Assembly (NCBI RefSeq): GCF_032062105.1
Contig: NW_026930542.1
Coordinates: 248,001 to 312,000, forward strand
DNA length: 64,000 nucleotides
Direction of reading: 5' to 3'
Source: Saccostrea cucullata
Taxonomy: Eukaryota
Of this stretch, positions 359 through 60,989 are shown piece after piece. Both the position numbers and the translations under genes were made by a program. Within the stretch, counting starts at the first letter, position 1. Every line of letters begins with the position of its first letter. Under the pieces are notes generated by a model that saw nothing but the letters and a program-made list of their open reading frames with translations, was not told the origin of the DNA and ran no database searches.

Positions 359-1444
359 CTGATACATGTTCATGCCCTGCACTGGTGTATCATAATGGGA
401 ATCGGATAAAACTTTAGGAGGAATATCTGCAATATCAGTTGAAACGTTTCTGACAATACTTTTTATCGTCCTCGAATTTATATAGCAATCGTGGCAACAT
501 CGAATCGTAAAATTGTAGAATTATGTATACAGTATCAATATCTTGACATACATGTAGTCTGCTTATATGCCAAATATTGAAATCGATACAAAAGAAAAGC
601 ATAAAATTTATTATTTTATTATTATTTTATTCATTATTTTCTGAAATAAAATATTCACGGAGGGAGACCTACAGTTTGACAGGCAAACAATAAGTACTTA
701 AGGAAGTTGACCAGCATTTTGAGTTCTGGTTTTAGGACAAGAGAGCTAAAAAATAACGTGATGTCCAAACTTCACAGCCGGATAACTAGCGATTTAAAAT
801 TTACAACTTACTGACTCCTTGATCATTATTTCGATAGCATAATCACACTGTGGTCGACTTTCCTTCCGCTAAATGAAGTTTGAAAGGAAAAAAAATCATA
901 GAGAATATTTGATGGATTAGAGTATCTTAAAAGGGAGAAATGGTTTGGTTCTGATTAAATTAAAGAACATCAGATCGATATTCATTACCGTATTATAAAA
1001 AAGCTGAGCTTAGATGCTCCGTCAACAATAAACTTCATTTTCTTTTCAAGCCAGAAAAATATTTTGACAATACATAAATTAAATCAAGATTTTTCGGTTA
1101 GTGTGTGTAAAATTACTGTTTCACGTCCCACGGAGCTGATAAAAAGGTCCATTAAACGCTTTGCTTCTCTCTTCATTTTCACATTTTATAACATTACCTC
1201 CTCATAATTACCTTTCATAACTTTTTTTACACTACATCTTGATCTTGTCACGACATTAGTAATGAAAAGATCAAAGATAAATAATATCCTTCAAGAAAAT
1301 TAACAAAAGTCCAAAATATCAGGCAATAAATGGACTTATTTACGATCCCTGGGACAGTGTAACACCAATTTAAATTCCTTATGTGGACCAAACATATCAG
1401 TCTGAATGTGACCTATATTGTCTCAGAGAATTTTCATTGGATGC

Positions 1445-1680
1445 ATACCTGGGCCCAAAATCATAAACTGAGAACAGACTTAAGTCAAAATTTCAAAACA
1501 ATATAACTTTCGAAATAATTTTGATAACAAAATAAAATTTTCAACATATGTTTCAATTCAAGTATTTTGCACAGCTGCAAACTCCTAAGCTAATACATCA
1601 AATGGAACTGAGGATATTAAAAATTAAAATTTTGACTTATGTCTATTCTCATTTTATGGTTTTTGGGCCTGGTATGTATG
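1445..1680. mobile_element. MITE with ~50-bp imperfect TIRs (PIF/Harbinger-like GGGCC ends)
   Basis: catacctgggcccaaaatcataaactgagaacagacttaagtcaaaattt pairs with aaattttgacttatgtctattctcattttatggtttttgggcctggtatg. Confidence 0.65.
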
Positions 1681-1789
1681 GATAATAACACAATTTTGAG
1701 GCTATATGCATACATTTGCTGGAGAAGTGAATAAAGTTTAGGAAAATATTTTCATTAAACAGCATTTTTTTAAACAAAGATGCATGAAT

Positions 1790-2985
1790 TGTATGTAAAG
1801 GATATATGGATATTTGTCTATGTATAGGGCGTATGGATGATGTTTTAAAATATGGATAATGTGTAAAGGATGTATAGAGAATATCTGTAGGATGTGTGGA
1901 CAAAGTGTAAAGGATGTATAGAGAATGTCTATAGTATGTGTGGATACTGTGTAAAGGATGTATAGAGAATGTCTGTAGGATGTGTGGATACTGTGTAAAG
2001 GATGTATAGAGAATGTCTGTAGGATGTGTGGATACTGTGGAAAGGATGTATAAATAATATCTGTAGGATGTGTGGACAAAGTGTAAAGGATGTATAAAGA
2101 ATGTCTGTAGTATGTGTGGATATTTTGTAAAGGATGTATAGAGAATGTCTGTAGGATGTGTGGATAATGTGTAAAGGATGTATAAAGAATGTCTGTAGTA
2201 TGTGTGGATACTTTGTAAAGGATGTATAGAGAATGTCTGTAGGATGTGTGGATAATGTGTAAAGGATGTATGGAGAATGTCTGTAGGACCAGTGGATAAT
2301 GTTTAAAGGATGTAAAAGAGAATATCCGTAGTATGTGTTGAAACTGTGTAAAAGAAGTATGGAGAATGTCTGTAGAATGAGTGGATACTGTGTAAAGGAT
2401 GTATAGAGAATGTCTGTAGGATGTGTGGATACTGTGTAAAGAATGTATGGAGAATGTCTGTAGGACGTGAAGATAAAGTGTAAAAGATGTATGGAGAATG
2501 TCTGTAGGACGAGTGGATAATGTGTAAATGATGCATGGAGAATGTCTGTAGGACGAGTGGATAATGTGTAAAGGATGTATGGAGAATGTCTGTACCTAGT
2601 GAATAATGTTTAAAGGATGTATAAAGAATATCTGTAGGATGTGTGGATAAAGTGTAAAGGATGTATAGAGAATGTCTGTAGTATGTGTGGATACTGTGTA
2701 AAGGATGTATAGAGAATGTCTGTAGGACGTGTGGATAATGTGTTAAGGATTCATGGAGAATGTCTGTAGGATGTGTGGATAAAGTTTAAAGGATGTATGG
2801 AGAATATGTAGGATTGTGGATATTTATAGGATGTATGGAATATGCCAGTAGGGCGTTTGGATAAATGTTTTAAGGAACTGTGGATAGTGCCGGTAGGGGC
2901 TAAGAGCGCGTGAAATATCGATAGTGCCTATTTGTAGGATTTATGTTTAATGTTTAAGGGATGTATGGATAGTGCCTGTAGGATT
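1790..2985. repeat. 44-bp minisatellite (22+22 dimer), ~25 units
   Basis: GGATGTATAGAGAATGTCTGTA/GGATGTGTGGATACTGTGTAAA repeated; the edges are degenerate. Confidence 0.95.
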
Positions 2986-4639: not shown

Positions 4640-5200
4640 TAAAAAATCGGGAGCAGAGCAAACGCGGGACTCGAAAAACAACACAAGGGGGGGTCAAGTG
4701 CCAAGTGGAGGAGTGAGCATCCCCTATCGACTGGTCAACACTACCGTGGTGCTCCTTGCCATGACCAGACAAACGGACAAATCCGTAGATAACCCACTCT
4801 GTAATAGTGCCCTAACAATCGGCATGAAAAACGTCAGTGTTGTATTTTCTAACATGGTCATTGTATCGACAACAGAACTTAGAAAATTCTGATCTTCAAC
4901 AAGACTGTTGAGAATCTTGTTTTATCAACTTGTTTGTCAATATCTTGCCTTGTAAAATAAAAGGCCTTTTTGTAGAAAAGTATTCAACTATGAAACAGAT
5001 GTGTCAGCCTCTTAGTATTTTTTATTTCAAATTTACTGCAACATATGAATGGAAGTATCTACTGGTAACTGATAATGCATCCTCGATATATGGTATTTAA
5101 ATGTCAAGTTGTATGCACGACCAGTTTTAATTTTCTCTTTCTCATGTATTTTCGGACTCTTGCAGATGAAAGAAGGATACCCCAATTCTAAAGAAATGAA
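4640..5200 (-). mobile_element. Decayed Penelope-like retroelement (RT C-terminal part and 3' end)
   Basis: The minus strand gives broken remnants resembling FxxTFRYIDDVLS..FHSYV..EIK and LTNKLIxQ..KFxxRYN, followed by a ..GACCAGTCGATAGGGGATGCTCACTCCTCC..GGCAC.. 3' motif typical of this bivalve repeat family. Confidence 0.6.
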
Positions 5201-6746
5201 AAAAAATGTTTATGTTTTGCTATGGGAAACTCCAAATATGTCTCTAACCAAAAGATAAAATAAGAGGTTCACAATGACACTATGCCATATAGATTCTTTG
5301 AACGTCTCACTGAATTTTATCGTTTCACAGGATGAGCTCCTGATGAAATACTGGTACCTCCAATGTTATAGAAAGAATGATAGTGTTGAATTTTCTTACA
5401 TGTCAGATCAGACCACATATAGATAGGAGGTCCACAATGGCACTATGTAATACTAGTAAACATTCTGTCGATGTCTTATTGGATTTTATTCAGTATTATG
5501 GGAGAATTTATGGATATTAGATGGGTTCTCCCAAGAACTAACAGACATACGTTTTTAAGTGGGGGTATAACAAATGACATGGTCTATACCAGTTTTTAAG
5601 GTGGGGGTATATTAATAAATGACATGGTTTATACCAGGGGTTTACCTTTATTGTGGCTTTATCAGAACATTCAAAATCACAATGGATGCTGATATAAAAA
5701 GAAAGACAACTCTATAAATCAGCTGATTGGATTGTATTAAATAACAATAACACGCTGGATTTTGATTCATACAGTGACATCATATCCAGCACACTAATAC
5801 CCTAAACATTCACAAACATCATCAGGAGAAAATCTTATTCAATGTAAAATGAAATGCATGCAGAATTGAAACAAAAAAATCAGACTCAATATTTACAATA
5901 AGTTCATATCATATTGCTCATAGAATAAATAATTCCTCTACGATCTAAAGGTTCAAATTTAAAAATTTGTATCTAAAAAAAATTAGATTATTCCTCTACA
6001 TCAAAATTAAAGTTTCACATACATGAAATTTGAATATTATCTTTGATACTTTGAGTATGTTAATAAAAAAAAAATCATAAAAAATTATTATTGACATTAT
6101 TTAGCTAATAATTATATCATTGTTTTTCAAATATTGTGAATAATTGCCAATCACAAAATCGCAAAATTTACTCCAATAATTTTATAGATATTTTTTTTTT
6201 CATCCAAATATTAAGTAGACATTTCATTTTGAAAATTGTCTTATGGAACAGTACATTTCTCAACTCATACCTAGAAAATTTAACACTTTGTTTTAATTAC
6301 TGGAACATTATTTGAGATCAGTTTCATATTGTAAATATCATTTTCTCATAAATAATGCATGTACATGTACAAGCATGTGTAACTCTATTTAGCTAGTCCC
6401 AAATTACAATACTAAATCATTACTTCAAACAGACATGGCTACACGTTTATAATTCATTAATTATTTCACAAGGGTCCAGATTCTCTATAGTATATATCGC
6501 TTCTTGCAAACGAAAACTTTGGACTTCCTTTTTGACAGATTAACAATATCAGATTATGCATTACATCTGACAAAGCTGTATGAGTCCTGCTATATACTGA
6601 GGTACTGGTGTGTCATTAGTGTCTGACAATGTTGTTTGATTCCTGCTTCTGAGGTACTTGTGTGCCAGGGTTTCTGACAAAATGGTTTGAGACCTGCTTT
6701 GTGGTTCTGGTATGTCATGGGTGTCTCCATATATTCTCAAACATTC

Positions 6747-9700
6747 TTAATATCCATGTGGTGATTTCGATTTGTCTGAAAAAAAATATGTAAAACCTTT
6801 AAAGACTTGTAACAATATGAGCTTATATTTTCACATCAGAAATATTTTTATAGTACATGTATTGTGATTATAAATTAAAGGTGTTTTTGTGTTAGAAAAA
6901 ATAGAGACAGCTCCAATGAAGAAAGACGACATTAATGTCTATCTGTACAAAAATACCCTCGTATATTTCTTATGGACAAGTAATACTTAGCATTCCTTAT
7001 AACAATTTTTTTTTCTTCTGAATAACATTTTTGTCTTATAGATAATAGAGTTTAAGTTACATGTACATGCAGCATAGGCATAATAGCATTTTAAATTAAA
7101 ATTTACAGAATTCACAAAAATCTCTGAAAATTCAGGTAACACTGCTTTAACAAATTTAAACAAAGAATCTATTGTGATTAAAAAATAAACATTATGAAAA
7201 AAAAAAACCCATCTGCATGGACTAGATGTATTATATATTTAAACCAATTTTAACTGAATGTCTTGATATATGAACAAAGCATCTTCACAAGTTTCTTTAT
7301 TTTTTCGCGTGTGCTGTCTTGTAAAATCAATTCCAGGTGACAATCCTTATTTATCTAAATCATTATCTATTCAAAATAAATACAGTAAAACACAATTAAA
7401 ATGAAATGCCAGGTACTGACGATTTTGCTTCGTAATTCATTACATCCATGAAGTTTATAATTTATTTCAAAGTCATGGGGAATGAAAATCAATTTATGCA
7501 TCAATTTAAAAACCATTGTACGAATCAATTAATTATGAGCATGCTTGCCTTAAGATTGTTTTACTGTGTTTATCATAAAAATAGGTTTATTTAGAACAAC
7601 CTTCAAAATAGAAATTATAACTATGAAACAGTTTTCAATGTTTTCGAAGTCCACCAAGAGAATTCATGGGGATTTTTTTCCCAAGTCTTTTTTGCTTTAC
7701 TACAAGCCAAAATCATATCCTATTAAAGATTACCAGGTATGTAGAAAACGTTACTTCATTTTTTTTTTTAGAGGATCTTTAACTGACAAACTAGAGCAAA
7801 AAAAAAAAAAAAATAATTATAATCTCTCATCATCGTGACTGAAAACTAACAATACAATGAATTTAAAAAACAAATAATTACGACATCATAAATGAATCCA
7901 TAAGTGCACATTTCAGGCTCCCTACTCTAAGGTTATTCAATTACCAGTAAATACAATAGAATGATTTTGCAAAGAAGGAATAAAAGCAGAACTTGCCAGG
8001 AGGCAGTGAAAATGTTACAACATTCCCATGAAAACAATAAAAGAAGATCAAGTACATTATATACAACATAAAAGAACATTGCTGCTGTTGTTTACTAATA
8101 GAATATACATGTAGGTTAACTTTGTTATGTCAAACTTCGATATCTCAAATACCATGGATATTTCAGAGAGAGTTAAAAGTCCCAACTTATATTCTAAATT
8201 AATTGTAATCCCAATATCTAGAATCCTCAGGCTTTTTTTCTTGGCCTCACTGAATTACAATGTGCAAGAAGGATCTAACCCGAAAACTGATCAATACCCC
8301 CTCTTTCTATATACATGTATATATTTTAGCAAACCAAATCACAATATCAAGAAAGTATTTTCCCAACATTACAGGAGCTCAATGTATCAATATAATGTTA
8401 AAATATCCTATGGCAGGTCAATAACTTTTTTTACTTTTAAAATGCACCAAATTCCCGCCAAACCCAAATCATTCGTTTGCATTCTGTTCTTGTTTGTGAC
8501 TTGTGATTTTTTTTGTTTGTTTGAAATTACTAAACGAAAATAAAATTGTCATGTGCAGATTATTTCATGTGACAGTTGTGCAGTATGCAGAACAAGTTAC
8601 ATAATTTGCTATCTAGGGTTAGTGTTACATACAGTGAAGTCAATGTGGCAACAGATCACGACCCTAAGACACAGAAGAAGTACCAGACAAGGACATTACC
8701 TGAGTACTGGCTGTTGTTGAAGGGATGGTGCAGAAGAGAACTGCTAGTGTATGGGGGGTACAGCCCTGTAACGCCATCAGAAAGCAAAGCGTGGGTTAGA
8801 CATTATACAGCAGCATCAAATAACAGTCACTGGCTAAATGATATCACAGGTCTCAATATGATTGTTAGATATACATATAGGCAACTGATGCTCTTATTAC
8901 TGGAAGTTTTAAGACATGGAGAAAAGCAAAGTGCAAAGAAAGATTTATTATCAGAGGAAGTTTCTAGTAATTAAGAAATGAATTAGCTTTTGAATGACTA
9001 CGTAATCAAACTTAATTTGAAATTGTTTGCAGAATTGATTTTAAACAAGAAATCTTTAAAACCATTATCTTTATCATGTAATGGTACTTTTTTTCTTTTC
9101 TGAAATGTTTTTTCACAATACTACCTTCAAAAAATAAATTCAAGTGTGGTTTGAATTTCATGTGCAATAAATTTACATTAAAACACAAGTGTTCACATAG
9201 TTTAATTCCTGAAAGTTTTGTTAACCAGCTGTGCAGAGACACATAAACACACAGATTTATGTAATGATAAACTTCTGATACACTAACGATATTAGACGGT
9301 GCACTTGCTACATGTATAACAAGATATGATAAACACTTTTGATAAATACAGGTGAATTCTTACCTGGATGAGGTTGTCTTGTCTGAAGTAGGGGGTTCGG
9401 CATGCCAGGTAACAGGGGGCTAGTGGGAGGATACATACCTAAAAAATTTTTTTATAAAATCTTATAAAATCTTCTCATGTGATTGAGCATTTAATTCTGA
9501 AAATTTCTTTATATGCCATAAAATCAATGATTTTTTTTTTTTTTTTAAACATGTATATGAAATGATTTAAAATAGAAAAAATGACAAATTAATATTTCTA
9601 ATTTTACAAAAATAAATAACTTGTACTATAATAATGAATGTACAAACCACCAGGGGACACAACTGAGGGAGGAGGTAAACTGGAGGAGGCTGCTGATTCC

Positions 9701-12700
9701 CTGGAAAAGTTGGAGAGTTTCAGGGTCTGGTACCCAGGAGCAGGGTTAGGGAGCGAGGGACTTATCATTCCTCCAACAGTGGACTTATGCTGGACAGTGA
9801 TGGGGGGCACATTCCAGTTCTGGGGGGATATCCGCTGCTGGGGTGAGGATTTGTTGTACACAGAAGACGGGGATACAGGTTTCCCTTGGTAACTGGTGGG
9901 CGAGATCTGTTTCACTTGGGAATGTGAAGAAGATGATTTAGAGGCTTGGGAATTAATCATTTGTTGGATGAGCTCAGCAGTTTTACTGTCCATTTTAGGA
10001 ATTGGATTACTAGGGGACACTGAACTCTGTCCTGCTGGTTTTTGAACTTGCATAGGTGATGTTTTTGACACTGAAGACATTTTGTTTTGAGAGGCTCCCT
10101 GACCTGAGGGGGCACCTGCTGCGGCCTGGACGACTCGCCCTGTACCTGTGGTATTGAACAGAGACTGGGCTGGCCGACTGCTGGCTGAAGACGAGGGATA
10201 CATCACTATTGTTTTTATTTTATCACTTTTTGGTTCTGAGGTTGACGCTTTCATCATTCCACTAGCACCATGCATAATATTGCTAGGAGTGTTTGGTTTG
10301 TTAGCATGTGCTGGAGGTAGATTTACTCCACTTTCCATCAGGAATTTTCTATATACATCATCACTTATAGTTGGTCGTTTTGTATTGGGAGACTGGGCTG
10401 GTAAGCTTGTCTGAGGTTTGCTTTGATGAGCTGGAGGGGCCATCGTTTTGACCTCTGGTTTGACCACCCCCTGATGGGAGAAGGCTGGGGTGACAGGTTT
10501 TGCCTGATGAGCAGCCACTGACTGGAGTCTATTCAGTAGCTGCTGCTGAGTGTAAGATTTAGTCTCTAGTGTTAAATCTTTCTTTTTGGGACTAACTTCC
10601 TGAGTTTTTCCTGCTTCCTCTGACAATTGTCTCTGAATCAATGGGGAAACAAAAGTCTGAAATTGTTCCATGTATGATTTGCTGCTAGCATTAGATTGAT
10701 CAGATTTCTTCTTGCTGTCAGGTATTTGAGGAGTGAGTGATGCCCTTAGTATGTCATTGACCTCGTGACCCCAAGATTTGTCTAGGTATTTCTGATTGGC
10801 TGCTGACGAGGCCAACAGGGACAAAGCATCAGAGGATATATTCACTTCTCCGAGTTTTGATGATGATCCAGATTGCGGAGAAATGCTAAGTTTAGTCGCA
10901 GACTGTGGAGAAGCACTAAGTTTAGACGTAGACTGCGGAGAAACGCTAAGTTTAGACACAGATTGAGGAGAAACATTAGGTTTAGCAGGTTGTTTTCCAG
11001 CGTAGTTATGAACAGCCAGGGGGTCAGGCTTTGATGATTGACTGGGTACTTCCATCTTCTCTTTGTTAGAATTTTCCTCTGCTGGGGGATGGAGAGAGGA
11101 GGATCCTGGTACAAACTTAGAGGTGGTAGATGACGACTGAGAGTTTTGTGTTGACTGCATGGAAGAGGTTTTGTTTACTGTCAAATTTGCTTGCTTCTTC
11201 ACTTTTTGTCTAAAAAATGACAATTTTTACAATGTAATTTTTAAGAGATGAATCAGTACATAAAACTTGAAGCAGTAAATTATTATCAGAAAATCTGAGC
11301 CTTATTCCAGAAGAAATTATCACTTGGTACATGTACTTACACATTTGTCCACTGTAAGTGAACTGCTCTGCTCTCTTTTATCAAATTCCTGAAATAAAGT
11401 CTTGAAGTTAATATCAATGTATCTTAAAACAACAGGTGTGTGTTAAACACAGACACACTGAGAGTGGATATTTCCATTGAAAAAAAAAATGAATTGAAAG
11501 GGCTGAATAAAATAAAATACAAAATATATATAAACTGCTCAATTGGATCTACTGCACATATATAATAATAATAATAATAATAACTAGAGCAAAGCTCGTT
11601 GCAAAGCAACGAGTAGGTCTTCCGTCCTGTTTTGACCGGAAGTGACGTCAACAAAAGAAAGCAATGAGCTAAGTTGTGTCCAGTCACTTTATAATTTCAA
11701 TTTTGCATCAAAACCTTTAAAAATAAGCTTTGTTTGGCTACTTCCGGTTTGACCGCAAGTGATGTCGACGGACAGAAAATTACGTTTTATGCTTCCAGTG
11801 ACATTTGTGATCCAAAAACTTGTCAAGAACGGTAAAAATATGCATTTTCTAACGACTTCCGGTTTGACCGGAAGTGACGTCGCTGGACGCATTTTGACGA
11901 CTTCAATAGATTTAGCTTGACATTTTGAACAACTTTGCTTCTTGGACGTATTACAAATTCTCAATACTTTTTGAGATATCTGGAAAAAAATTTTGGACCC
12001 TCTAGATCCCTTAATTTAGGGGTCAGCCCTTTTTCCGAGATATCATTTGAAAGATCTTCTAATTCTGCACAAATTTTGTTCTATACGTTTTAACAAAATA
12101 TTTTTAGTTTAGAGGATAAAAAGCAAAATATGAGTAATTTTTAGCTCTTTTAAGCGTTCTAATTTTTGACCCCTATATAGCGCCATTTTGAATAGAGAAA
12201 TCGAAAAACAAAAACCGATGTGCACAACTTCAATCCTTCTATTATCTAAAATCAGTAGAATTTCTGCTCCAGCTTTAGCCGTCTCTGAGCCTTTGTCTGG
12301 AAACGAAAGCCTATAAATTTTCGTTTAAAGGGAAATAACTCAAAACCGGAAGTGACTTTTTGAAATTTTCGACAGCATTCTGATAGAGTTTAGTAACTTC
12401 TAGAACCTCTGAAAATTTGAGTGAAATCAGTTTAGAAATGAGTGAGATATGAGGCTTCAAAGTTGGCATCTAGGAAGTAGAAGAAAAAAAAAAAAGAATA
12501 ATAATCTTTACCAACAGAATCAGTACAAGGTCTTCCGTTGGAGATGGAAGACCTTAATAATAATACTTTATTTTAAGAGGGTAACCTGATTAGTGCAATG
12601 CACTATAAGCATGTTCACAATAATACAATAATAAAATCATTGTACAATAATAAATAATACAACATGATGTAAAAATACAAGTACATATAGATTTCAGGAG

Positions 12701-26700: not shown

Positions 26701-29700
26701 ATGCATCAACTTACAAGATTTGATGATTCTAAACCTCCCAGTGTCTGAAATAATGGGATTAAATTTTTTTAAAAGGATAAGTCATAGAGTTCAAAAAGTA
26801 GGTCAAGGTGACCTTCTTTTAAGTTGACATTGTTTAAGGACCCAAGATGCATCAACTGACAAAGTTTGATGATCATAGGCCTTAAAGTGTCCAAAATATG
26901 CCTTCAAATCAATTTGAAAACAAATGCCCGTAAAATTTTAAAAGTAGGTAACCGTGACCTACTTTTGAGTTAACATGATGTGAAGTCCTAAGATGCATCA
27001 ACTTACAAGATTTGATGATCCTAGTCCTTATAGTAAGTAAGATATACACATTTTTATTAATTGTAAATTTAGGTCAACTTTGAAGTGACCTTGAAACCAC
27101 ATCCTTTGCCCCAGGGTAATTCCCCGAGCAAATTTTAATCTTCGACATATCCTGATCCTTGTATGTAAGTTTGGTGAAAATCTGCCAGTGGTTCTGGAGA
27201 AGAAGATTTTTTAGCAACCAGTACTTTTGGTTTTGTTTTCCTGATTATCTCCCCTTGTTTAAGGGTCCTAACCCTTATTTTAGTATAAATGGTAGCCCTT
27301 GGGCCAATGATACCCTGTGACGAATTTGGCACTGATTGGCCAAGGGGTTCTTGAGTTATGGCCCATATTCTAAAAAGTTTACGCACACCGCACACTGCAC
27401 AAATGGCCATAGCATTAGCTCTTTGAGCCTTTGGCTCAGAAGAGCTAATTATAATTCCATTCTAAAACAATACAACAGAAAAAAGAATTTAAAAAAATAT
27501 TATCACCCACCAGATTTAAAGATGTCATCTTCACTGTTATCCAACAAAACTGGTTCCACCTTCCTACAAGATTTAAAGAAATCTTTATTTTTTAGTTTAC
27601 ATAATCCTGCAGTTAATTTTTGGAAATTATATGAAACTATGTATGCAAATCCCATTGATGATCAATACACTACAAAAACTGAATTTGCTTGAAAGAACTA
27701 TATGCGGTATTAACCAACATTTGCCCCCCCAAAATCAAACTTTGATGGAGTAATATTTAATTAAGTCCTTAAACAGGGGAGTATATGCTGACTTCAAAGC
27801 ACTGAATGATTTCATAAGCAATGACGTCATATGTACGTAATGACGTCACAAATATGACGTAAATTTCAGTTTTTTATGAATTTTGCAGAAAAATGTACAT
27901 ATTTCGTCGATATTTTAAATAAAAGTCACCGAGCGCATGTGTGTTCAGGATAAATATTTTGATATAATGTGTAGAATGATAATATCAATGAAATATGTCA
28001 ATATTGTTCCTGAACACACATGCGCTCTATAAATTTTAAAGCTTAAATTGTTGAAATTTTGTCCATTTTGTCCTCTTTCTGGAAAAGGATATAAAATCGG
28101 ACTAGTTTGTGACGTCATAAAAACAGAAATTGTGAATACACTGCTCTGGAACTATAATATTTTCTGTTAACTTATATTTCTCGTACAATTTATTGAATTC
28201 AGCACATTTCAGGAAGTTTTCAAAATTTGACTTTTGTGGGGGCAAACATATGCAATATACCGCATATAGTTCTTTGAAAAGAAATTCAAGGAAGACTTGT
28301 TTGCTTCTAATATTAGAACAGATCTGAATATGTGACTGAATCTTAAACTAATTCCTGTGTGGGTTCATTGGGTTGGTATCTGATGATATCTACCTATCCA
28401 TAGGTGTGTCCTATGTAGAGTGGAGTCTCAAATCAACTTGTGTGTCCTGTGTAGAGTGTCTAGATATCTCTCTGTGTATTGTAGTGTCTAGATACAGTAA
28501 AACTCAATATAACGATGTCACTGGACCTTTGAAATTAATTCATTATATCTGTAATTCGTCATACCCATATAAGGAATTCATTAAATTTATGTAGCTGGGG
28601 ATCCAAAATAACTTCGCTAGATCCATGAATTCGCAATATCTGTGTTCCTACTAAACAAGTTTTGCTGTATCTACCTGTGTAGAGTAGTGTCTAGATATCT
28701 ACCTGTGTAGAGTAGTGTCTAGATATCTACCTGTGTAGAGTGGTGTCTAGATATCTACCTGTGTAGAGTGGTGTCTAGATATCTACCTGTGTAGAGTGGT
28801 GTCTAGATATCTACCTGTGTAGAGTGGTGTCTAGATATCTACCTGTGTAGAGTGGTGTCTAGATATCTACCTGTGTAGAGTGGTGTCTAGATATCTACCT
28901 GTGTAGAGTGGTGTCTAGATATCTACCTGTGTAGAGTGGTGTCTAGATATCTACCTGTGTAGAGTGGTGTCTAGATATCTACCTGTGTAGAGTGGTGTCT
29001 AGATATCTACCTGTGTAGAGTGGTGTCTAGATATCTACCTGTGTAAAGTGGTGCCTAGATATCTACCTGTGTAGAGTGGTGTCTAGATATCTACCTGTGT
29101 AGAGTGGTGTCTAGATATCTACCTGTGTAGAGTGGTGTCTAGATATCTACCTGTGTAGAATAGTGTCTAGATATCTACTTGTGTAGAGTGGTGTCTAGAT
29201 ATCTACCTGTGTAGAGTGGTGTCTAGATATCTACCTGTGTAGAGTAGTGTCTAGATATCTACCTGTGTAGAGTGGTGTCTAGATATCTACCTGTGTAGAG
29301 TGGTGTCTAGATATCTCAGGGCTCTCGATTCTCTAAAATTGGGGCCGTTCAACGGCCCCGTTCCCAATGCAAAAAAGGTACCCTTTTCCCAAAAGAAAGT
29401 TGTAAATTTCCCAATTTCCAACGCAAAATATTAATTTAAAAATAAAAGTCCATGAAACTTAATCGCAAAAAAAAAAACTCAAACAAAACACACTTGCAAA
29501 TGAAAGTGAAACTGAACGACTATTTTCACCCCTACTAATGTGTTCGGAACCTTTTATTTTTCGGTGTTCTGCACATTATAAAACCCGGTGAGTTCAGAGT
29601 AGCTCTGACAGTGGCTCTGGCGAGAGCTAGCGAGACTTCAGTGAGATAGGGTAAATTATTCACGGAAATGTGGCTAGGAAGTGACTAGCACGTGGAGACA

Positions 29701-30858
29701 TGGTAAACAGAAAAGTTATGTTTCGTTTTAGTTTTCATCACCCTATAATATAATTCTGTAGAAATGTACTTCAATCGATCTTTCTTGAATCCATTCAAGT
29801 TTAAATTATTTTTAAGTATTCTCTAAGATACAATTTTCTGCTGTCATGAATTAAAATTTCTTTTTGGACAAATATTTTGCATGGGAACCGGGACTATATT
29901 TTCTAGCGTCAGATAAGCAAATGAGGCACCAATGTGACTTTAACTGACAAATCAGATGAAAGAGAATTGCATTATGGGTTACTATACGAATACTACAGGA
30001 ATTTTACGCTTGATAAATTCCTTTATTGTACTGTCGGTGAATACAATTGCCAGGTGGATTCCCTTGCCAACACACGTGATCACGAGTATAGTAGTGTAAA
30101 AAATGTTTTTGTCCATTTAAATTCATACGAGAAGCTGTTCGTTTTCCTTACCCTTGAAGTGCTGGTGTTCTGAACTTGACACGAACTACGTATACATTTT
30201 ATTAAACATATTTTTCTCTAGTTAACAACAAATTAAAAACGCCCGTAATGTTTTTCATAGTTTGTAATGTTTGCATTTTGTTCATAAGAACATTTTTTTT
30301 ATTTTGCACTCCATTGACATGATCATAGATTGACCTAGGCCTGAATCAAGTGTTCGAAGTAACATGTAAGCATGTATTTGGCGTAAACGTATTCAATCAA
30401 CAATTAATTGGTCAGTTGCTCGTGGTAAGATCCTCTGTGCGCATTAATAGCAATAGCCATATAAGGCAAACAAAGGTTTGTCAGTGTATATGATATTACA
30501 CATTTTTTTACCAGCTTATCGGTCGCTAGGACATGTTTTCAGAAGAAACAGACTATAGCAATTTCCTGTTTACTGCTAATTTTATTTATAAAACCGGATC
30601 TACCCTATAACCTTTGAATAGGTAAACCTAAACCATGTGTCTTGAATTTAAATCACAATAACATTAGAAGGGGTGATTTTATTAGTTCGTGCCAAATGCA
30701 TTCGTAAACTGGTTAGGGGAACCAGGTTATTGTTTTTACAAAAATGTACCAACTTGAGTGCAGAGTATCTTGTCATGTATTTTCGACAAAAAACATCATT
30801 AGCTCTACTGGTCAGAGACCAGAAAAATTATGCGATAGTAATGCGTCCGTCGTCCGTC

Positions 30859-30905
<47 letters not shown>

Positions 30906-36900: not shown

Positions 36901-39900
36901 GTGTGCCAGGTATGGAGTAATGTTTAGATATCTACCTGTGTGCCAGGTGTGGAGTAGTGTCTAGATAACTACCTGTGTGCCAGGTGTGGAGTAGTGTCTA
37001 GATATCTACCTGTGTGCCAGGTATGGAGTAGTGTCTAGATATCTACCTGTGTGCCAGGTGTGGAGTAGTGTCTAGATATCTACCTGTGTGCCAGGTATGG
37101 AGTAGTGTCTTGATAACTACCTGTGTGCCAGGTATGGAGTAATGTCTAGATATCTACCAGTATGCCAGGTGTGGTGTGGAGTCTGTATATTTACCTGTAT
37201 GCATGGTGTGGTGTATGATATCTAGCTGTGTGTCCGGTGCGGTGAGGATGTTACTTGTGGTGATGTACCTGTGATTTACCTGTGTGGAGTTGTCTCTAGT
37301 TATCTACCTGTGTTGAGTTTTCTCTAGTTATCTACCTATGTGGAGTGGTCTCTAGTTATCTACCTGTGTGGAGTTGTCTCTAGTTATCTACCTGTGTTGA
37401 GTTGTCTCTAGTTATCTACCTGTGTGGAGTTGTCTCTAGTTATCTACCTGTGTGTGGAGTTGTCTCTAGTTATCTACCTGTGTGGAGTAATCTCTAGTTA
37501 CCTACCTGTGTGCCCGGTGTGGTGTGGTGTTTTATATCTACCTGTGTGGAGTTGTCTCTAGTTATCTACCTGTGTGCCCGGTGTGGTGGGTTTGTTTTAT
37601 ATCTATCTGTGTGCCTGGTGTGGTGTGGTGATTTATATCTACCTGTGTGCCTGGTGTTGTGTGGTGATTTATATCTACCTGTGTGCCCGGTGTGGTGTGG
37701 TGTGGTGTTTTATATCTACCTGTGTGCCCGCTGTGGTGTGGTGTTTTATATCTACCTGTGTGCCCGGTGTGGTGTGGTGAGGATGTTACTGGTGGTGATA
37801 TAAAAGTCTTCATCATTGTCACTGCTGCTCATCTCATCATCCTCCACAATAAACTGATCAAGGCTGTCAAACAACAGACATGCCAGGTAAAAATATATAC
37901 AGGGAAATAACATTATTTTTTTAATATTTCAAAAAATCCCTCTGACTATAAAATGACCATATTGTTTTTTCAAAAATGTACCGAGCTATTCATCAGGAAC
38001 TTATTTCCAGATTAAATAAAATACATGTACAAAATGAACATTTACTTAGGTACTTTATGTATAAAGTCATGCTCTCTCTCCCTCTTACACAAAGACTTTA
38101 CTGGTATATATACTAAATTCTTACAATGTTCCAATGTCTTGTTATAATCTTTAATCATAATAATGTGAATGCATTGATTTTCAAATGGTTATTCTACCTG
38201 GTTAAAGTTTTTAACTGATAAGTCATGCAATATAGTCATCACAAAAATAGGAAAATCTGCCAAACCTTGTGTTCTTCTTTGGAGTTTCCTTTGGTGACAC
38301 TTTCTTGGGTGCTTTCATCTTCTGGAAGACTGCAACAATCAACATACAATATTAAATAGCATAATGACATTTCATTATTAGAGTGTCTAAGGGACTTTGC
38401 AAACACCTGCGTAAAACCTGTTACAAAGGTAGCAAACACCTGTGTAGGGTAGTATATTTAAGAGGGTGTCTAAACTCACTCTGGTATACATTACATGATT
38501 CTGGTATACATTACATGATTCTGGTATACATTACATGATTCTGGTATACATCACTAGATTCACTCTTGTAATGCTTTGGTGTCCTGTAATTTAAAATTCA
38601 TTATTCTGAGTATGAGTATAAATAAAATCCTTATATTGTATGTCTCTTTTATCTGTGATTTGTAACAGTTGTCATACTTGCCTCCAGTGGACGGTACTAG
38701 GTTGTTCTTGACCAGTTTTACTGGATGCTTTGTTCTTTTTAGCAGAAAAGCCTCGATCAGAGAGAAAATCATCGGAATCGGACGACAGAATTCCCTCATC
38801 CCACTGTAACCCTGCCCCCTTAACATCAGGTAAATCATTGTCTGAGTCTGAGGAAATGTCCACATATTTTGCTGTTTTCAATTTACTGGCACTGTTTCCC
38901 ACTTTGTCTTTGGTGTGTTTTATCCTTTGATCAATGTCTGGTAAAGAGTCATCCAAGTCTGATGAATTTTCTACTATACATTCCTTTTCTTCATTTAAAT
39001 CTTCAGTCCCATTATCCAGTATGACCTTTTCCACCTCTGGAGTTATTCTCACATTTGTAACACCTGGTGCCTTTTGGACAACATTCTTTGTTACAGGAGT
39101 AAAGAGGCCATCACTAAAGCTTTCTTCATCGCTGCTGAAGTTAGTGTGACCCATACTTCCACTTTCTTCCTTACTTTTACATTTCTCTGAATTTTCAATG
39201 AAATTTTCCTCTGAGGACAAATTCTGTTCTGTTTTAAAATATCTATCCCCCTCCCTCTCTACATAATGGATATCAAGGTTTTGTGTAGCTTTCCCAGAAG
39301 AAATTTTGCTTCCATGATCATCTTTTTGTGAACCTTTGATGAAGCTTGTCTGGAATGATCTCTCTTCTACCTCCACATATGAAGACCCCGACTCTGTATC
39401 CTCATCAAAGTCTTTCTGGCTATGAACAACTGCACTGGTCTGTAAGGAAACATCTTCTATTTCAACATAAGAGGAATCAGTACTTTCTTCCACACGATTG
39501 GATACTTCTTCTGTCTCAACATCAGTTACTATAACAATCGGTTCATGAACAGAATATATTCCAGAGCTATCACTGCTGTTCTGCAATAAATCATTCTGAG
39601 AGGAATCAGTTCCAGGTTTCTGAGATTTAGAAACAGATAAACATTTTACCGATATCTCTTTGACATCTGCTTGAGCTGAAGCGTCCTCAATCTCTATGTA
39701 GGAAGAGTTATCTGTCCTTTCTGCACTCTCGACAGAACTCTCGGGGATGCTCTGTAAATCTTCTAATGTCTGGACAGCTTCCTCTGGAATATCATCACCT
39801 AAACCTTCCATCACAGTCTGAAAAGCAGGACCAGGCTCCAATACCTCACAAGGAGCTGTGGTGTAAAGCTGTGTTTCTTCATGTCTTGATCTGTTAACCT

Positions 39901-48794: not shown

Positions 48795-50795
48795 TATTGT
48801 ATCTGTAAAATGATATTGTCCTATGGACCTGGTTAAACGTTAAAATTCATTCTGTATGTTGGCAATAAAGCAAATTATGGGCCCCTAGGTTTATAATTTT
48901 TACAAGCTCACATTGATGATTCAGGGCCCAACATTTTCTCTACTTTATGAAATTAATTCTCAGTTTTTTTTTTTTTTTTGTTTTTTGTTTTTTGATTTTG
49001 GGGAAGTATACTTCACTAGCCATTTTTTACTTAGTTTCATTTTACACTTTGTAACTGTGTTAATTAGTATATACATGTATAACAAATAAAATATACATAG
49101 AGAGGAATGCATTACTAGGTTATGAAATTTAATTCAGATATTTAAGTAGCAAGATACATATACAAATATATGTTGCAAGGGAAAGGTAATGAATAAAATT
49201 TATAATAATAAAGCTTATCAAAAATTCATCTCTGCAATAGAAGTGTGTATGGAGGCTAACAATCAATAAGGAATGTAGACTGTCATTGTTGGCTGATCCA
49301 AGACAAGTCAGTACCCTGTTTATAATGTATATATCTCTTATCAGTATAAACACGAAGTTCTCCTGATAATAATTAAGGTTTTGGTAATTGGTGATTTCCA
49401 TACATGCTCTAGACTGGAGATTAGATAAGATTGGCTTTCTATGTCCTTTTCTGTATTCTCATGGCTTCTTGTATTAGTTAATAAAGGCATACTCTTTATT
49501 GTATAAGGCAACAACTCATGGTTTATGAAATGTCATGACATATTTGATGTTACTGGTCCCATTTGATGTTAACCATGTTAACCAGAATGTAAATGCAGTG
49601 CAATTAGATGTCAAAAAATCATTCCTTTAGTCTTTCATATGGGTCACAGAACCTTAGGTATTGATTTTCAAGTTTGTGTGTGCAGCTGAAATGCTCCTCA
49701 TTTTTGTTGAGGCAGTCCCAGTATCTTTTTTATAACATGTATTGATTTTTACCAACTTTTTGTCTTAAAGGAAAATATTCTTTGTATAGTTTTGTCGTAT
49801 GTTAAGAAAACACATATCAAATGAAGTTACTATTAATTTACTTGCCTTTCCCCCTCTTTTTATGATTTTTTAAAAGGATTTTCCTTTTTTGTCCACCATT
49901 TGATTTTAATGGTCTGAGATTAAGATTATTTACAGGTATAGAGTTGTTAATACATGCATATAATAATTGAAGACAATTTGAAACTAAACACTTTAGGAAT
50001 GGTTTGAGAAAGACATATCAATTTTATATTGTAATGAGTTAATTTATAAAATCTTGATTTCACAATGAACGGTAGGATACAACAACAGGGAAAAAGTGTT
50101 AGAGGATTTTCAGGTAATGCAATTAATGAATATGGCCATGCAACATTATATTTTTGCATGAACACACATTTTTCGACTCCACAAAAACTGGAGTTTAATT
50201 AATATAATAAGGTCTTTATTTCCAAGCTTCAATTTAAAAAAAAATCCTTCAACATTTTGGCCTCTGGCTTAAATGTCTGTCAAGGTCAGAAGTGCAAGAT
50301 TTTTGATACCAGTGGCCCTTTTTAGTTTATCTTAATGTATACATTTAACACTGTAATAAAATTTGCCTTTTACTTTGGAAAGGGCATATATGGGCAATGT
50401 ATCTGCTTTCAAATTCTGCATTATGTTAAAATTTTATTGCCATAATTTTTTTTAAGCTTTGCTTTTTTTGACTGTTGTTTGCCATTAGCATGTAAAAAAT
50501 TGGTTTAAGTTTTTGTTTTCATATTGTGAGGTAATCAAGTTTTAATCCAATCTTGCTCCCAAACACAGTATAAGATGTTACTGTTGTACTGTCTTGTATT
50601 AAAGAGAGTGACACTTATAAAGCACTTTTCCTGTATTTGTAATACTTTTACTATAAGGAAATACAATGTTTAATACTTTTTGTTGTAATTGTACTCTGAG
50701 GGAATGATACTTTTTTGTGATACTTGTAAGGGGGTGATTCTTTTTGTGGTATTTTTCCTGTATAAGGAGATGATACATTTTGTGGTACTTTGTCT

Positions 50796-53022: not shown

Positions 53023-53084
53023 CCACAAAGTATCCTTAGATGAAGGGGACTCAAGTTTGTTCAAATGAAGGGCCATGCCCTCTC

Positions 53085-53115
<31 letters not shown>

Positions 53116-53972: not shown

Positions 53973-53989
53973 AATTTATCCTGAGTACA

Positions 53990-54400: not shown

Positions 54401-57024
54401 GATGATCCCTATTGATTGTAATTAAGTTTTAGAATTAAAATAGGACAATCCTTTTAAGAGTCATGTTCAGCATTAAAGAACTGTCCCATAGCTGTCCATT
54501 TTAGTCAGTGCTTAATTGAAAGCCATATGACAGTAATGAGTTGATGAAATGGTTTTTGTTAAGTGTATTGCATCACGACAAGATGAAATTGTAAGATACA
54601 GCATGCGCTGGTTGGATTTACAGGAAATTGTATCTGAAAAAGAAAAAACAAACAAATGATACAGAGGATCGCATTAGCTGTCAGACCTAATGACAAAGAG
54701 GTCTAAATCTGTCAAAGAATGTCATTAGCCTTAACTAGTATCCATTACTGGATCCTGATGGAAAGTCAGGGTCCTTTATTGACCATGTGGAAAATACAGG
54801 GATAATAATGCAATGGGGTCAAAGGTTCATAAAGTTCAGGGTGTAAATTTTGGTCAAGACTAAATTATAAGGTTTACAAATGTTTGTACCAAAACAGTAT
54901 AACTTAAGAATATGAAACTGACATTACTCTTTTGCAAATTGAGTCGTTAAGAATTAAGAATATGAAACTGACATTACTCTTTTGCAAATTGAGTCGAGCA
55001 GTAAGAAACTCGCCTTGTGAGAAACTGAAAAAAAAACATCAATTGAAAGTCTCTTTCTTAATTTAAAGGTTACATATGTAGCTATCTTGAATATTTCTAT
55101 GTAGCTTCCTTTTTATTAAGACTGTCATATTGTGGTCTAGAGGCACCTCATCCAATAGGTGTTGGTTTGTTTACTGATCTAAAAGACCAGAAAATGACCT
55201 GCAAATTGTGCAAGTGTTTGCAGTACTAGTGAAATACATGATGACACAAGGTGAAACAATTCTTGAAAGTAAAAGTTATCAAAACAAAATAATAAACTGT
55301 TTTATAATCAATTTATTGGCACATTTCTTTCTGAAGGTACTTGAATGCAGATATGCTTTGGATGTAAATATGATAAAATCATCTGTGGGGTAAATATGAG
55401 GCTATATTCATTGTTGTATATTAAATTAATAATGTACAAGTATATGATTTGGATGTAGGGAGAAAAAAGTATTAAGGGGCTTGATGAGAGCATCTGTGTC
55501 AAATTGTTACAACAGCCGCTTCAGAATCAACACCATTAAACGGAATCAGAAAGTTACTACATAGATGTCTGGCTCCATTGATGATAAAATCAATAGCAAA
55601 TGCATTCCAATTGATTTTTAAGTCAGTTCTCCATAAGCAATTCAGTTTCCTATGATTTCTTTCTGTTGTGATATCATTCTGATGTACGTTTTTACCATAG
55701 GTCTGAATCTTTGGAGGTTATTCACTCTTTATTGATGAATTTGCCCTACACTTTGTGAAGATGCTCCTTTATTGTATAAAACAGTCATAATAGGACTAAT
55801 CAGTGTACATGTGAACATTGTTGTAATGGAGGAACTCTATTTGCAGGTATTGATCCATTGCTGAATTGTGGTCGCCATATTGTTTCAAAGACTCCACAGA
55901 CACAGTGAGTATGATTCAGTAAACAGATCAATTATTAGTTAAGTTCAAGAAGAAATGAGTAATACCTGCTTTAGTAATGAGAAATTTGAAAATGAGCAAA
56001 TTTTGAAAGAGTTAACATCATTGTAAAATACCTTAACTTAAAAGAAATCGTATTCCCTATAATTACCTAATGCCATATTTATTCAATTTTTTAATTAAAA
56101 ATAAAAAATTGGATCTGTAATATACATGTATTTATTAAGAAAAAAAATAGAGAGAGTCTTAGTTTGATACTTACTCGAAATGTATTCCGAAAAAAAATTA
56201 AAGAATGCTAAAGAGTTTTATAATATTTTCTACAATGAAAAACTGTAATTTATTGTTATTATAATAATTATATTAATACCAAAGAGATATTCCGTCATAG
56301 TGTGAAAGAATATCGGAAGTGTGGCAAAACTTGATTTTCCTGCCTTTTAGGAAGAGTATTGGTAGAAATACATCTATGTGGCCTATAATAAGATAGAGAT
56401 AATAAATAAACCATCCTGACAGAGGTTTACATTTTCTAAGTTTCTCAAAAAAGTTAGCACTAGTTGACATGTTCATACATCATTGCTGTTGTAGGAGGCC
56501 GGCCAGAACCACCACCAAAGCCTACCACCCTACCACAGAGTTACCAATCTACCACCAAACAGGAGATCCATGTTTGGTGGGTGTTAAAAGTAAGTCTACA
56601 AAAACCACAAAAAGGCTGTGTAGTTCATTTCCTTTATTAGATTTAATGTTTCCTTTGATATGCCCATCCTTCCTTTAGCAGACAGTCAGATCAATCTCTG
56701 TAGCCTGCTGGCAAATAGGTTGTGATGAGTTAATGCTTACCAATTCATCTACAGCAATGGCCAGATCTTGCCAACTGTGTCAATTAGATTTTATTTTATA
56801 TCTTCAGTCATCCCCCTACATCTACATCTCTTGTCCTGCTGTAGCTATTTTTATTACAAACATGCAGTAACAGGAATTCATATTTGACTCGAATTCTTAC
56901 CAGCCCATGGATATCACTCATTAGTAAAAGGTTCTTTTCATAATACATGTACATCACAGTACATGTATTAAGCAACATTTTCAAAATAGATAGGGTAAGT
57001 CAGTAAAATTCAAAATTTATAAGA

Positions 57025-57646
57025 AACAAGATGTGTCTCTGAAAGACTGATGCCCCCATATGGCAGCTTATGGTTAAGATTGAAGTTTCTCAAATGCAAG
57101 TCAAACTCCAAAGTCAAAGGCAAAATTGTTGATATCAAAAGGAAGGTCTTGTCACAAGGAATATACCTATGAAATTTAAAAGCCCTGGTACAAACTGTAC
57201 AAAAGTGGCCAAGGTTGAAGTTTTTAAAAAGTGGATCAAACTCATAAGGTCAAGGTCAAAAGGTCAAAATTGTTGATATCAAAAGTGGGTCAAATTCAAA
57301 CTTTAAAGGTCAAAGTCAAAATTGTTGGTATCAAAAGAAAGGTCTTGTCACAAAAAATGAAAGCCTTAGCACCAACTGTTCAAAAGTTATGAATAAGGTT
57401 AAATTTTGGTATTTTTTGTTGTTGTAAAAGTGGGTCAAACTCCAAAGTCAAGGTCAAGAGGTAAAATTTGGTGCTACCCAAAGAAAGTTCTTGTTACAAG
57501 GAATACACTGGTGAAATATGAAAGCCATAGCCCCACCCAGTCCGAATTTGTGGAAAAAGTTAAAGTTAGACAAACAGATAAATAGACAGACAAATGGACA
57601 AGACAAAAACAAAAAACCCTTGAATCTTCGATTACATGGACAAAAA
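57025..57646 (-). mobile_element. Degenerate HINE with caaggtcaa-rich repeats
   Basis: 3' end aacaagatgtgtctctgaaagactgatgcccc; (GACA)n near 57570-57605. Confidence 0.65.
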
Positions 57647-60546
57647 ATGTAAGACTGAGAGGAAGTCACACTTGTTCCCCAATACAAAATCTTAAAAGGT
57701 GTGCTTAATGAAGGTACCTGCTTATAGTTAATGTAATTAAAGAAGTAGTATTGGTTTAACTCAGGAGATAGGGAATGTGTGTGTGCAGAAAGGGGGAGGG
57801 GGGGGGGGGGCAACAGCAGGAGTCTAATTCCAGTCAGAGACATGAAGAGTAGGTCATCCAATAAAATTGTATTAGTTTTCTTAAATTGTTAATATATGTT
57901 GATACATAAAATGGACATGCTGGCTGAGCAGAGCTTATACTCAGTCTGATTTAGAAATTCATTTACCAGGTAATTTTGGTTACAAGCCCAGTGAAAGAAC
58001 AGTGAGGTATATATGCTTGTTTGAATTACTTCCTATTTTCAAGATCCCATTTTTCTAGTACTTGAAGTTAATCCATTCACTTCAGGTTGTTTGTCCAATA
58101 TATTAACTCTATTTTCTTTACTCTTGGTCCAAAATAATTTGAATGTTTCATTGTACACACACTGTAATGCTTACAGGGTCAAGATCAAATTCACTAAAAT
58201 AAGAGCTCTTGAGAGGTCAAATGAAACATGACATAAGGCTCAGCCTTAATAACAGACACTTCTGAAACTAATTAAAACAAAGAGTTGATTGAGATTGTTG
58301 ACAATGGACAGGCATGTATCATAGGAATGAAATGCAGCAGGGATTAAAATTATAGCATAAATAATTCACAGTACAGGAGCTACTTTATTTTTCATGTATA
58401 GTTGCTTTGTATAAGCACGTCACATATTTTTTAAGGGAAGGCAAAGTTTGTAATTCAGGCATTGATCAAGCTTGTATCAGTGATGCAACAGTCATTCTTA
58501 CTCTAGATCCTGCTTTTGACCTACATTTTACAAATGAGTGATCAAAATTAATTTCTATGAGATGATCAATCAGAGACTTCAGAGGTTTGTATGAGTCAGG
58601 TAGTTATGTCTTAAATGTACTATTAGGGGTCTGGTCTAGATGTTAATTAAATATTTTTAACAATTAAATATTTCATTGGCTATAAGTGATACAGTCTTAC
58701 CCTGGAATCAAACAATATAGTGGAGCTGTCTTTTCTGATAGGAAATTCTAATTTGTCTTGGTATATGATAGTGAATCTGGGTTTTAATTTATTGTGCTGA
58801 ATGAGAAAATATCTGGATGTGGAGGTTTTAATATTTTCATTTTTTTTTTCTCTCTCAGAAAACCCCGAAGTTTACTATGTTTACATGTACTACAGCTGTT
58901 CACTTTTCTTTATCTTCTGGTGTCATCTGTGCTGACTTCATTTACCATGGACTTCTTACTTTTCTTTGAACCAATATCAAATTTTCATGTTTCTTGAAAA
59001 TTTTCAATGCCCAAGTGCTTGCTACTTCCTTTACAAATGCAATTAACATTTACATATGACATTTTATTGTTAATAACTATTGATTTTTTGGTAACACTCA
59101 ATGCAATGATTATCTTGTGTACTTTATGATTCAAATAAATATTTGTAATCAATATTTGTAGAAAATTTACATGATATTGAATTTTGAGGATTGTGTTACA
59201 AAATTTTTTTATAGAGGTGAAACTTCTCCCTTATTGAGATGAGCAATTCTAATTTGTTTAGACCTTATCAATATTTACTCTATCACATAGCTTTTGTTAT
59301 TTGATGTAGGTTGTGTTATGACCAGAGTAAAAATATAATGGCCCAGTCTCCAAATGGTGAGTAAATCAATTTAGTTTCACATTTCAAAAAAATGTCCTCA
59401 TTTGATGAACAAAAAGAAAAATGTCAGTGGTGTTAGAAGGACATTATAATTGATAGAAAAAAATCTGACTTTCAAGAGTAATTGAACAGCTTGAATTAAA
59501 TCCGAATGGCTTTCTAGTACCCTATAGACATGTTTTGTAGGTAGCTTATTTAGTGACCTGACCTGAGTCATGGAGTTCTATTGGAATTCTACTCTGTGAT
59601 GAAATTAATCATCTCAGGAATTATTGGAGAACTTCAGGCAAAAGAGAGACAACTCTAATTTGAGAGTTATTACTATTTATTACTTGGGATTTGTTGGGAG
59701 AGTTATTCCTCTTTGCTCAAGTTATTTCATACAACAAATTAAATTAGAAAATTAATTTTATCATTTGTAAAACAAATCCAGCAGGTGAAAGTGTAGCTTA
59801 TTACCATTCCTGTCTTTTAGGTCTAGCTTTTAAATTAATGCACATGTGTTTGTTTTTCATTTTAAAATGGCACTGACAGCCTTGAAAAATGCCAATACTT
59901 TCATTCATTGATTTACTATGTACTTTTATTTTATTTTGCTCATATCTTTCTTCAAAACACAATTTCAGTTTTTGTTACTACACATTCGGAATATTTTTTT
60001 GCATAAAATAAAATCAGTTTGTATGTATAATTATGCTAACAATGCTTTTCCACTCAGCAATTTTTATTTTACTTTGTTTGGAGGGGATTAGATTGTACAG
60101 TTTTGTAAATGAACATAAAAGCAAATTAACTGATGGAATATTTCAATTCTCAACAAACAAACAAGTATTTGTATTTAGTGAAGTTTAAGATATTCGGAAA
60201 TATAATTTAAAGCAAATTAATTATGACAGAATATATAAAATCAAAATATGTACACAAAATATAAAACATGCATACACACTATTTTGCTAATACCAGTGAT
60301 ATTAGTTCTAGCCGGTATTGACGGCCATTGTGGTGAGTAAGTTACTCCTGATTATGATTCTGAAATGGCATTGGGGAAAAAGGAGTTACCTCTCTTTAAG
60401 CTGCTACAGAGTAGGAGTTAAGTTGTGCTAGCCAAAGACTCTGGGGCTGTTGTACAAAAGAACTTATGATTTAAGACCAAATTTTAATTCTACATGTGTA
60501 TAAGTCTCTAATTAACATATACATTATAAATATTAAAATTTTAGCC

Positions 60547-60592
<46 letters not shown>

Positions 60593-60989
60593 CATTTTGT
60601 CCGGCGTCCGTCTGTCCGTCCGTCTGTCTGTCTGTCTGTCCGTCTGTCTGTAAACTTTTCACATTTTCGACTTCTTCTCAAGAACCGCTGGGCCAATTTC
60701 AATCAAACTTGGCACAAAGTATCCTTGGGTAAAGGAAATTCAAGTTTGTTCAAATGAAGGGCCACACCCTTTTCCAAGGGGAGATAATTATGAATTAGAG
60801 AAAAATTAATGGCATTTTTAAAAAATCTTCTTCTCAAGAACCACTGGGCCAGGAAAGCTGAAACTCATGTGGAATCATCTTCAGGTAGTGTAGAATCAAG
60901 TTTGTTCAAATCATGACCCCTGGGGCAAGGGTGGGGCCAAAATGGCCGACCCAAGTTTTACATACATGTAGGAATATATACGAAAAATC

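Follow-up and report, generated by a model that had tools for sequence, protein, structure and literature searches.

An abundant TA-flanked palindrome in the Saccostrea cucullata genome as a probable excision footprint of Tc1- and pogo-type transposons

According to the accessible text of the papers cited here, excision of the transposon Tc1 in Caenorhabditis elegans leaves 2-base, non-complementary 3' overhangs (PMC4490562), and taCATGta is a rare footprint of this element, for which Eide and Anderson 1988 is cited (PMC3520976). In the worm germ line such breaks are repaired mostly through polymerase theta, which joins them with deletions and gives variable products (PMC4490562, PMC13148408). 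End joining leaves terminal bases of the element as footprints, the canonical ones of Sleeping Beauty being TACAGTA and TACTGTA (PMC6943129). The octamer TACATGTA is also cited as the preferred site of Irx proteins (PMC3520976), and a Myb protein was reported to bind it (PMC11134190). As promoter motif-1 or AM-20 of Phytophthora it is found upstream of 12,070 genes in three species (PMC3520976, PMC11134190); a footprint origin of this abundant word was rejected there because of its abundance and conservation (PMC3520976). Here we describe the same octamer in a 64,000-nucleotide stretch of the oyster Saccostrea cucullata ("the window": positions 248,001 to 312,000 of contig NW_026930542.1, assembly GCF_032062105.1) and in the whole assembly.

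[quoted passage not shown] Where it can be polarised, the word mostly arises by insertion at TA, the same TA is found occupied by elements, the inserted bases match resident element ends and the flanks resemble a transposon target. As a six-base insertion at TAs that also hold cut-and-paste elements, the word is therefore most likely an excision scar. A first-pass annotation of the window had proposed this origin, which is now supported by enrichment over higher-order backgrounds, insertions at TA, an occupied TA and differences between duplicated contigs.

Abundance of TACATGTA

The window contains 23 exact copies of TACATGTA, compared with a mean of 1.87 and a maximum of 6 in dinucleotide shuffles, none of 100 shuffles reaching 23; the over-representation claimed in the first-pass annotation is confirmed. 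All 23 positions it listed are genuine, three of them after a shift by one base (correctly 16458, 56123 and 56960), and the AT content, given there as about 67%, is 65%. After masking of tandem arrays, TACATGTA is the top TA-N4-TA word of the window (22 vs. 2.1), and no single-mismatch neighbour is prominent. The copies are located as follows.

549..556, unstranded: TACATGTA, exact match, not polarised
6362..7065, unstranded: three TACATGTA (6362, 6854, 7058), exact match, not polarised
8106..9316, unstranded: three TACATGTA (8106, 8312, 9309), probably intronic in a ubinuclein-like minus-strand gene, exon bounds taken from open frames
11328..18381, unstranded: four TACATGTA (11328, 15477, 16458, 18374), probably intronic in the ubinuclein-like gene
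20536..20989, unstranded: four TACATGTA (20536, 20546, 20680, 20982), the first two flanking a TA run
23460..23467, unstranded: TACATGTA beside exons of a SprT-like gene (SprT-like match below cut-off)
38022..38029, unstranded: TACATGTA, exact match, not polarised
49072..49079, unstranded: TACATGTA, exact match, not polarised
56123..58889, unstranded: four TACATGTA (56123, 56944, 56960, 58882), exact match, not polarised
60963..60970, unstranded: TACATGTA in a 166-bp repeat unit whose TA gained CATGTA, from comparison of unit contexts

The assembly (1.17 Gb in 23,869 contigs, some of them duplicated) holds 362,932 copies, roughly eight times the about 45,000 that a Markov background predicts by extrapolation; the genome-wide excess is therefore about 320,000. 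The reversed palindrome ATGTACAT, used as a control, occurs 125,227 times and is thus 2.9 times rarer. Expectations were derived from a sample of 1.155 Mb from 13 contigs named by earlier searches, a non-random choice of which 1.047 Mb remained once masked. This masked sample contains 388 copies of TACATGTA against 51.5, 77.8 and 168 expected at Markov orders 3, 4 and 5, and only 38-41 are expected at orders 2-5 when the word itself is excluded from the background. A higher-order Markov background had been suggested as a check in the first-pass annotation, and the enrichment persists under all of these models. Homopolymers aside, TACATGTA ranks first among the 8-mers of the sample at orders 3-5.

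The density of the word is 0.29-0.55 per kb across all 13 contigs, with only mild overdispersion (mean 3.4, variance 4.8 per 10-kb bin). Its one-mismatch neighbours show an excess of 270-356 compared to 348 for the word, long neutral decay predicting roughly 400. Both values bear on the view that TACATGTA is a transcription-factor site of the Irx homeodomain or Myb type, made by point mutation and maintained by selection. The binding and promoter data cited above speak for such a site, whereas the even density and a neighbour excess close to the neutral prediction speak against it. Furthermore, the word appears as an entire six-base insertion in young repeat units, and two enriched sibling words, TACTAGTA and TACAGTGTA, would be left unexplained, so that we regard selection for protein binding as a very improbable cause of the abundance.

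A link of TACATGTA density to CpG-poor DNA was considered and rejected (Spearman -0.02, n=115 bins of 10 kb). In a tandem array with units of about 42 bases (L083:1451-2119) the word lies inside the unit; some copies were therefore multiplied by growth of the array and are not fresh events.

Empty, scarred and occupied states of one TA

The insertion can be followed in a tandem repeat at the end of the window, which serves as a mutation reporter.

60821..62088, unstranded: array of 166-bp units

A GTCY microsatellite (60598-60651) lies beside this array. Such a microsatellite and a central tandem array are described for Cg_HINE (PMC7492417), and the 166-bp array resembles, by this description, the central repeats of oyster HINE (Helentron) elements, to which it may belong.

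At the TA of 60963, 122 distinct unit contexts comprise 114 with plain ATA, 7 with other three-letter variants and a single one with ATA+CATGTA. The first-pass annotation had described precisely this gain, and correctly so. Among aligned copies the same TA is empty in 325 of 356, and in units with a variant left flank it carries five six-base inserts (4 CATG, 1 CACG). The main reporter TA of the unit, in the context GGAATATATAGG, is empty 10,687 times assembly-wide. Allowing any four bases between two TAs gave 28 matches, 18 of them CATG (TACATGTA) and 6 CTAG (TACTAGTA), with one each of TATG, CGTG, CCAG and TATA. Ten of the CATG loci were read; as they have no common alignment of at least 2 kb, duplication of contigs does not account for them, although a single array holds two of the 18. 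Within 36 inserts of 2-7 inner bases that start with C, the class covered here, 18 are CATG, none is CA alone and one is CTG, and the loss of one overhang is therefore rare at this TA.

The non-TA control for these derived insertions, which have TA on both sides, was a CA site in the 166-bp unit whose abundance in the sample is about 0.4 times that of the reporter TA (14 vs. 33). It gave three six-base inserts, none of them CATG. Six-base inserts reading CA-CATG-TA and CA-CTAG-TA were met at a CA site of the unit (C12679:333314 region/L055; C12522:11810-11839; C14372:514350-514379); a duplicated CA target does not account for them, as it would leave CA on both sides.

The palindrome might also arise without any transposon, by slippage of the replicating strand or by a fold-back template switch where the DNA is rich in TA, CA and TG. 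In favour of this, purines and pyrimidines alternate in the palindrome TACATGTA, TACA stands upstream of the 60963 site, and the inserts at the CA site can be read as inverted triplications. However, inserts arise where no CA or TG adjoins the TA as a template: at GGAATATATAGG 18 of 28 are CATG and only one is TATA. The rarity of the reversed palindrome argues against slippage, too, and neither the flank preference at +3 nor the match to element ends (see below) would be predicted. We consider this origin highly unlikely.

Insertions were also sought in an all-against-all alignment of 1.33 Mb, counting inserts of 3-30 bases with at least two supporting homologues. The 131 inserts found include 30 of six bases, compared with 11 of five, 6 of seven and 36 of four. 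Six of the thirty are exactly TA to TACATGTA and four are one mismatch away (by eye), the rest including repeat-subfamily variants and duplications. For 34 of the 461 TACATGTA sites in the sample at least two homologues were available; automated calls gave 6 empty, 1 substitution, 15 shared and 12 unclear. A comparison of repeat copies, as recommended in the first-pass annotation, thus shows TA to TACATGTA insertions both in the 166-bp unit and in the sample alignments.

To find occupied sites, 29 loci were read in which CA(G/C) and then any base but G come after the reporter TA. Foreign sequence starting with CAG stands at the reporter TA in 15 of them. In 8 of the 29 the element is complete (175-920 bases): its distal inverted repeat can be read, followed by another TA and the continuation of the unit. 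The remaining loci are 10 point variants and 4 short complex inserts, one of which is TACAGTGTA. At least three pairs among the 15 occupied loci are mutual duplicates. The TA is accordingly a used target that is found occupied, as the earlier proposal had asked to be looked for. The occupying elements belong to several families, including a MITE of the window (L297, left end), one of two described there.

28495..28667, unstranded: 173-bp MITE with ends CAGYAAAAC..GTTTTRCTG, TA on both sides, inserted in the TA of a 28-bp satellite
7383..7566, unstranded: degenerate 184-bp element with ends CAGTAAAAC..GTTTTACTG, TA on the left, TG on the right

The first was rightly reported as TA-flanked. Of 29 other copies, 27 are likewise flanked by TA at both ends, 24 copies differ by 3-11% from the majority sequence, and 3005 first-look candidates are present in the assembly. 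For the second, the ends and the left TA stand, but its right flank is TG instead of TA. Both are plausible donors, among the many CAG-ended families that exist. Long arrays of 28- and 37-base units with the common TAGATATCTACCTGTGT occupy 28668-37787 and are broken by the 173-bp MITE and other repeat elements.

The following route would account for these states. An element with CA..TG ends would integrate at TA and duplicate it, as at the occupied sites. The transposase would then excise the element, each end leaving a 2-base 3' overhang on the flanks, as known for Tc1. End joining would retain and fill both non-complementary overhangs to give TA+CA+TG+TA, as the products suggest. Family-X polymerases are able to bridge unpaired 3' overhangs. 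Outside coding sequence the scar would be nearly neutral and decay by point mutation, the about 320,000 intact scars being by estimate near a balance of birth and decay. Elements with CT ends may lead to TACTAGTA by a like route, and a cut three bases in at one end to TACAGTGTA. Many CAG-ended families probably feed the single word TACATGTA.

A variant of this route is that the same transposases make the scar when an integration fails or soon ends, so that most scars never held an inherited element. Scars at the reporter TA (27 exact CATG matches) indeed outnumber occupied left junctions (15), two patterns that are not strictly comparable, and doubles TACATGTACATGTA are found 12 times against about 1.7 expected, about sevenfold, suggesting repeated local events. 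Yet ordinary excision from a large resident pool likewise accumulates scars as elements vanish, and the doubles could stem from target preference or 6-mer duplication, some of the 12 being mutual copies. Immediate re-excision as the main source is therefore judged unlikely, and we retain ordinary germ-line excision.

Element ends, flanks, turnover and genes

Several sibling words are enriched in the sample (observed/expected): TACTAGTA (66/12.7), TACAGTGTA (56/16.9), TACTAAGTA (24/7.7), TACCGGTA (29/5.4), TAGGCCTA (18/4.9) and TACCCGGTA (13/2.0). TACAGTA is mildly enriched (328 vs. 234) and was met twice as a +5 insert. Resident Tc1 and pogo-like transposons have CAG and CTW ends, to which TACTAGTA, TACAGTGTA and TACTAAGTA correspond; the latter two are the words expected from these ends if 2 bases remain from one end and 3 from the other. 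Altogether, the inserted bases correspond to resident ends for the CATG, CTAG, CAGTG and CTAAG words, a match being unconfirmed for the CC/GG words.

Transposase genes with open frames are present in both families: for the pogo-like PF03184 and the Tc1-like PF13358 alike, 150 of 150 scored matches were obtained, most without stops, and D-34-E spacing was read in L223. Of 40 transposase loci read, 14 have TA-flanked ends (CAG, CAC or CTT/CTA, by eye), 23 show no inverted repeat inside the locus and 3 have other repeats. De novo censuses of inverted repeats were too noisy for ranking element ends by abundance. A very recent Tc1-like burst is suggested by seven DDE_3 matches (C4463, C6886, C9073, C9137, C11272, C11676, C21669) that score identically and have open frames of 357 codons. 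Other TA-flanked families of the sample end in GCTGCAG (8 loci of about 540 bases), CTGTAAACC (3 loci of about 210 bases) or CGAGGG (3 loci of about 1 kb). At L207 (C2245:9722-13231) the element around a DDE_1 match is 2.9 kb long, flanked by TAA and bounded by 44-base inverted repeats that begin with GG; the other pogo-like loci have the TA/CAG pattern instead.

When 362 single TACATGTA sites are collapsed to TA, their flanks favour a pyrimidine at +1 (chi2 92) and T at +3 (chi2 72), as in the Tc1 target consensus CAYATATRTG (PMC9635669). This preference is absent from 797 control words (chi2 2 and 5), and the flanks of TACTAGTA and TACCGGTA follow the pattern of TACATGTA.

Turnover was assessed in 110 kb of near-identical duplicated contigs, probably haplotypes, that differ by 860 substitutions. 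They share 38 TACATGTA sites and differ at 6. Three of these differences, sought as proposed in the first-pass annotation, are presence or absence at TA: a clean +6, a +9 and a +12 double TACCGGTACATGTA. If they are gains, insertion at TA is still ongoing, and birth and decay would balance at 0.44 per kb (range 0.09-1.27), compared to 0.33 observed. At C21821:3120-3133 (L109) two kinds of scar are stacked at one TA (TACCGGTACATGTA), a state missing from the duplicate contig. Contigs from public runs over window positions 5700-23900, among which relatives covered the single-copy DNA, gave no indel at a TACATGTA site among 12 listed of 356, the pile-up being swamped by repeats. A second haplotype of positions 5800-12000 was sought in the assembly, and among 40 scored of 4160 candidates only the window and one repeat were found.

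Several observations weigh against excision footprints, besides the inserts at the CA site. The other three contig differences are single substitutions, as point mutation towards a selected site would give, and the 110 kb include no pair of element and scar; no allele was seen in the analysis both with its element and with the scar. The six-base peak (30 of 131) is only partly TACATGTA, four-base inserts (36) being commoner. Seven of the 15 shared sites come from one tandem array, 12 of 34 sites are unclear, and at two of the six "empty" sites the commonest homologue has no clear TA; only one of the 23 window sites could be polarised. Neither a CC-ended donor, as TACCGGTA would need, nor a GG-ended one was confirmed. 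TA-flanked families with CG or GC ends are present, yet TACGCGTA and TAGCGCTA are not enriched. Finally, the 23 sites of the 173-bp MITE have the +1 but not the +3 preference.

Most copies in the window lie between apparent exons of the ubinuclein-like and SprT-like genes or in intergenic DNA. The ubinuclein-like gene extends over 8573-19508 on the minus strand (PF14075 at 15456-15737, minus), and the copy at 15477 falls just beyond an apparent exon end. In open frames of at least 200 codons (75 kb), which are only a proxy for coding DNA, 4 copies were found compared with 20.2 expected at the genome rate per TA (P about 1e-5), and these 4 correspond to about chance level. Coding DNA is kept free of scars. 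Being depleted in long open frames, TACATGTA is therefore not the systematic source of in-frame +6 insertions that had been assumed initially.

An apparent intron of the ubinuclein-like gene contains a reverse-transcriptase-like fragment (12704-13566, by eye, no Pfam match). Positions 21931-23372 and 38672-40468 (minus) show SprT-like and HMG-box matches below their cut-offs and a long acidic exon, a set which may represent a GCNA/ACRC-type gene.

Comparison with known systems

The chemistry of such footprints is old knowledge; new are the scale and the spectrum of products. What this analysis contributes is one site followed through its empty, occupied and scarred states, scar words that fit resident element ends, and a count over the whole genome. 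In a literature search restricted to best matches, with few subscription journals, no genome-wide TACATGTA footprints were reported for any animal in the accessible text, and the main text of a 2026 bivalve transposon preprint, as far as accessible, contains no mention of footprint, excision, mariner, CATG or target site.

Excision ordinarily leaves no countable record. Here the count of one 8-mer reports past cut-and-paste activity, sibling words tell which element ends were active, and the product spectrum reports germ-line break repair, which differs from that of the worm. The top non-homopolymer 8-mer of the sample being a mutational scar, motif finders would likely misread it as a regulatory site.

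A wider reading is tentative, and we hold it to be possible but less probable than not: in this oyster, and probably in many marine invertebrates, Tc1/pogo germ-line breaks might be sealed mostly with both unpaired overhangs kept. Hundreds of thousands of jumps would thereby be preserved as a fossil record coded by family, with a new scar for about every 300 base substitutions, and Irx-type words would be scattered through the genome, some of them to be recruited later for gene control. An origin of the same kind may apply to the oomycete promoter motif TACATGTA.

With the C. elegans Tc1 footprint the oyster word has in common the word itself, the TA target, CA..TG ends, presumably the 2-base non-complementary 3' overhangs, and CAYATATRTG-like flanks. 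It is rare in the worm, a further point against our interpretation, whereas in the oyster no other product is as common, and the scars are inherited at about 0.3 per kb. Sleeping Beauty likewise leaves TA-flanked terminal bases by end joining, and its TACAGTA is mildly enriched here, too, but it leaves three terminal bases from one end instead of two from both. Phytophthora motif-1/AM-20 is the identical 8-mer and equally very abundant genome-wide. A footprint origin was dismissed there, whereas in the oyster the abundance is explained by insertion.

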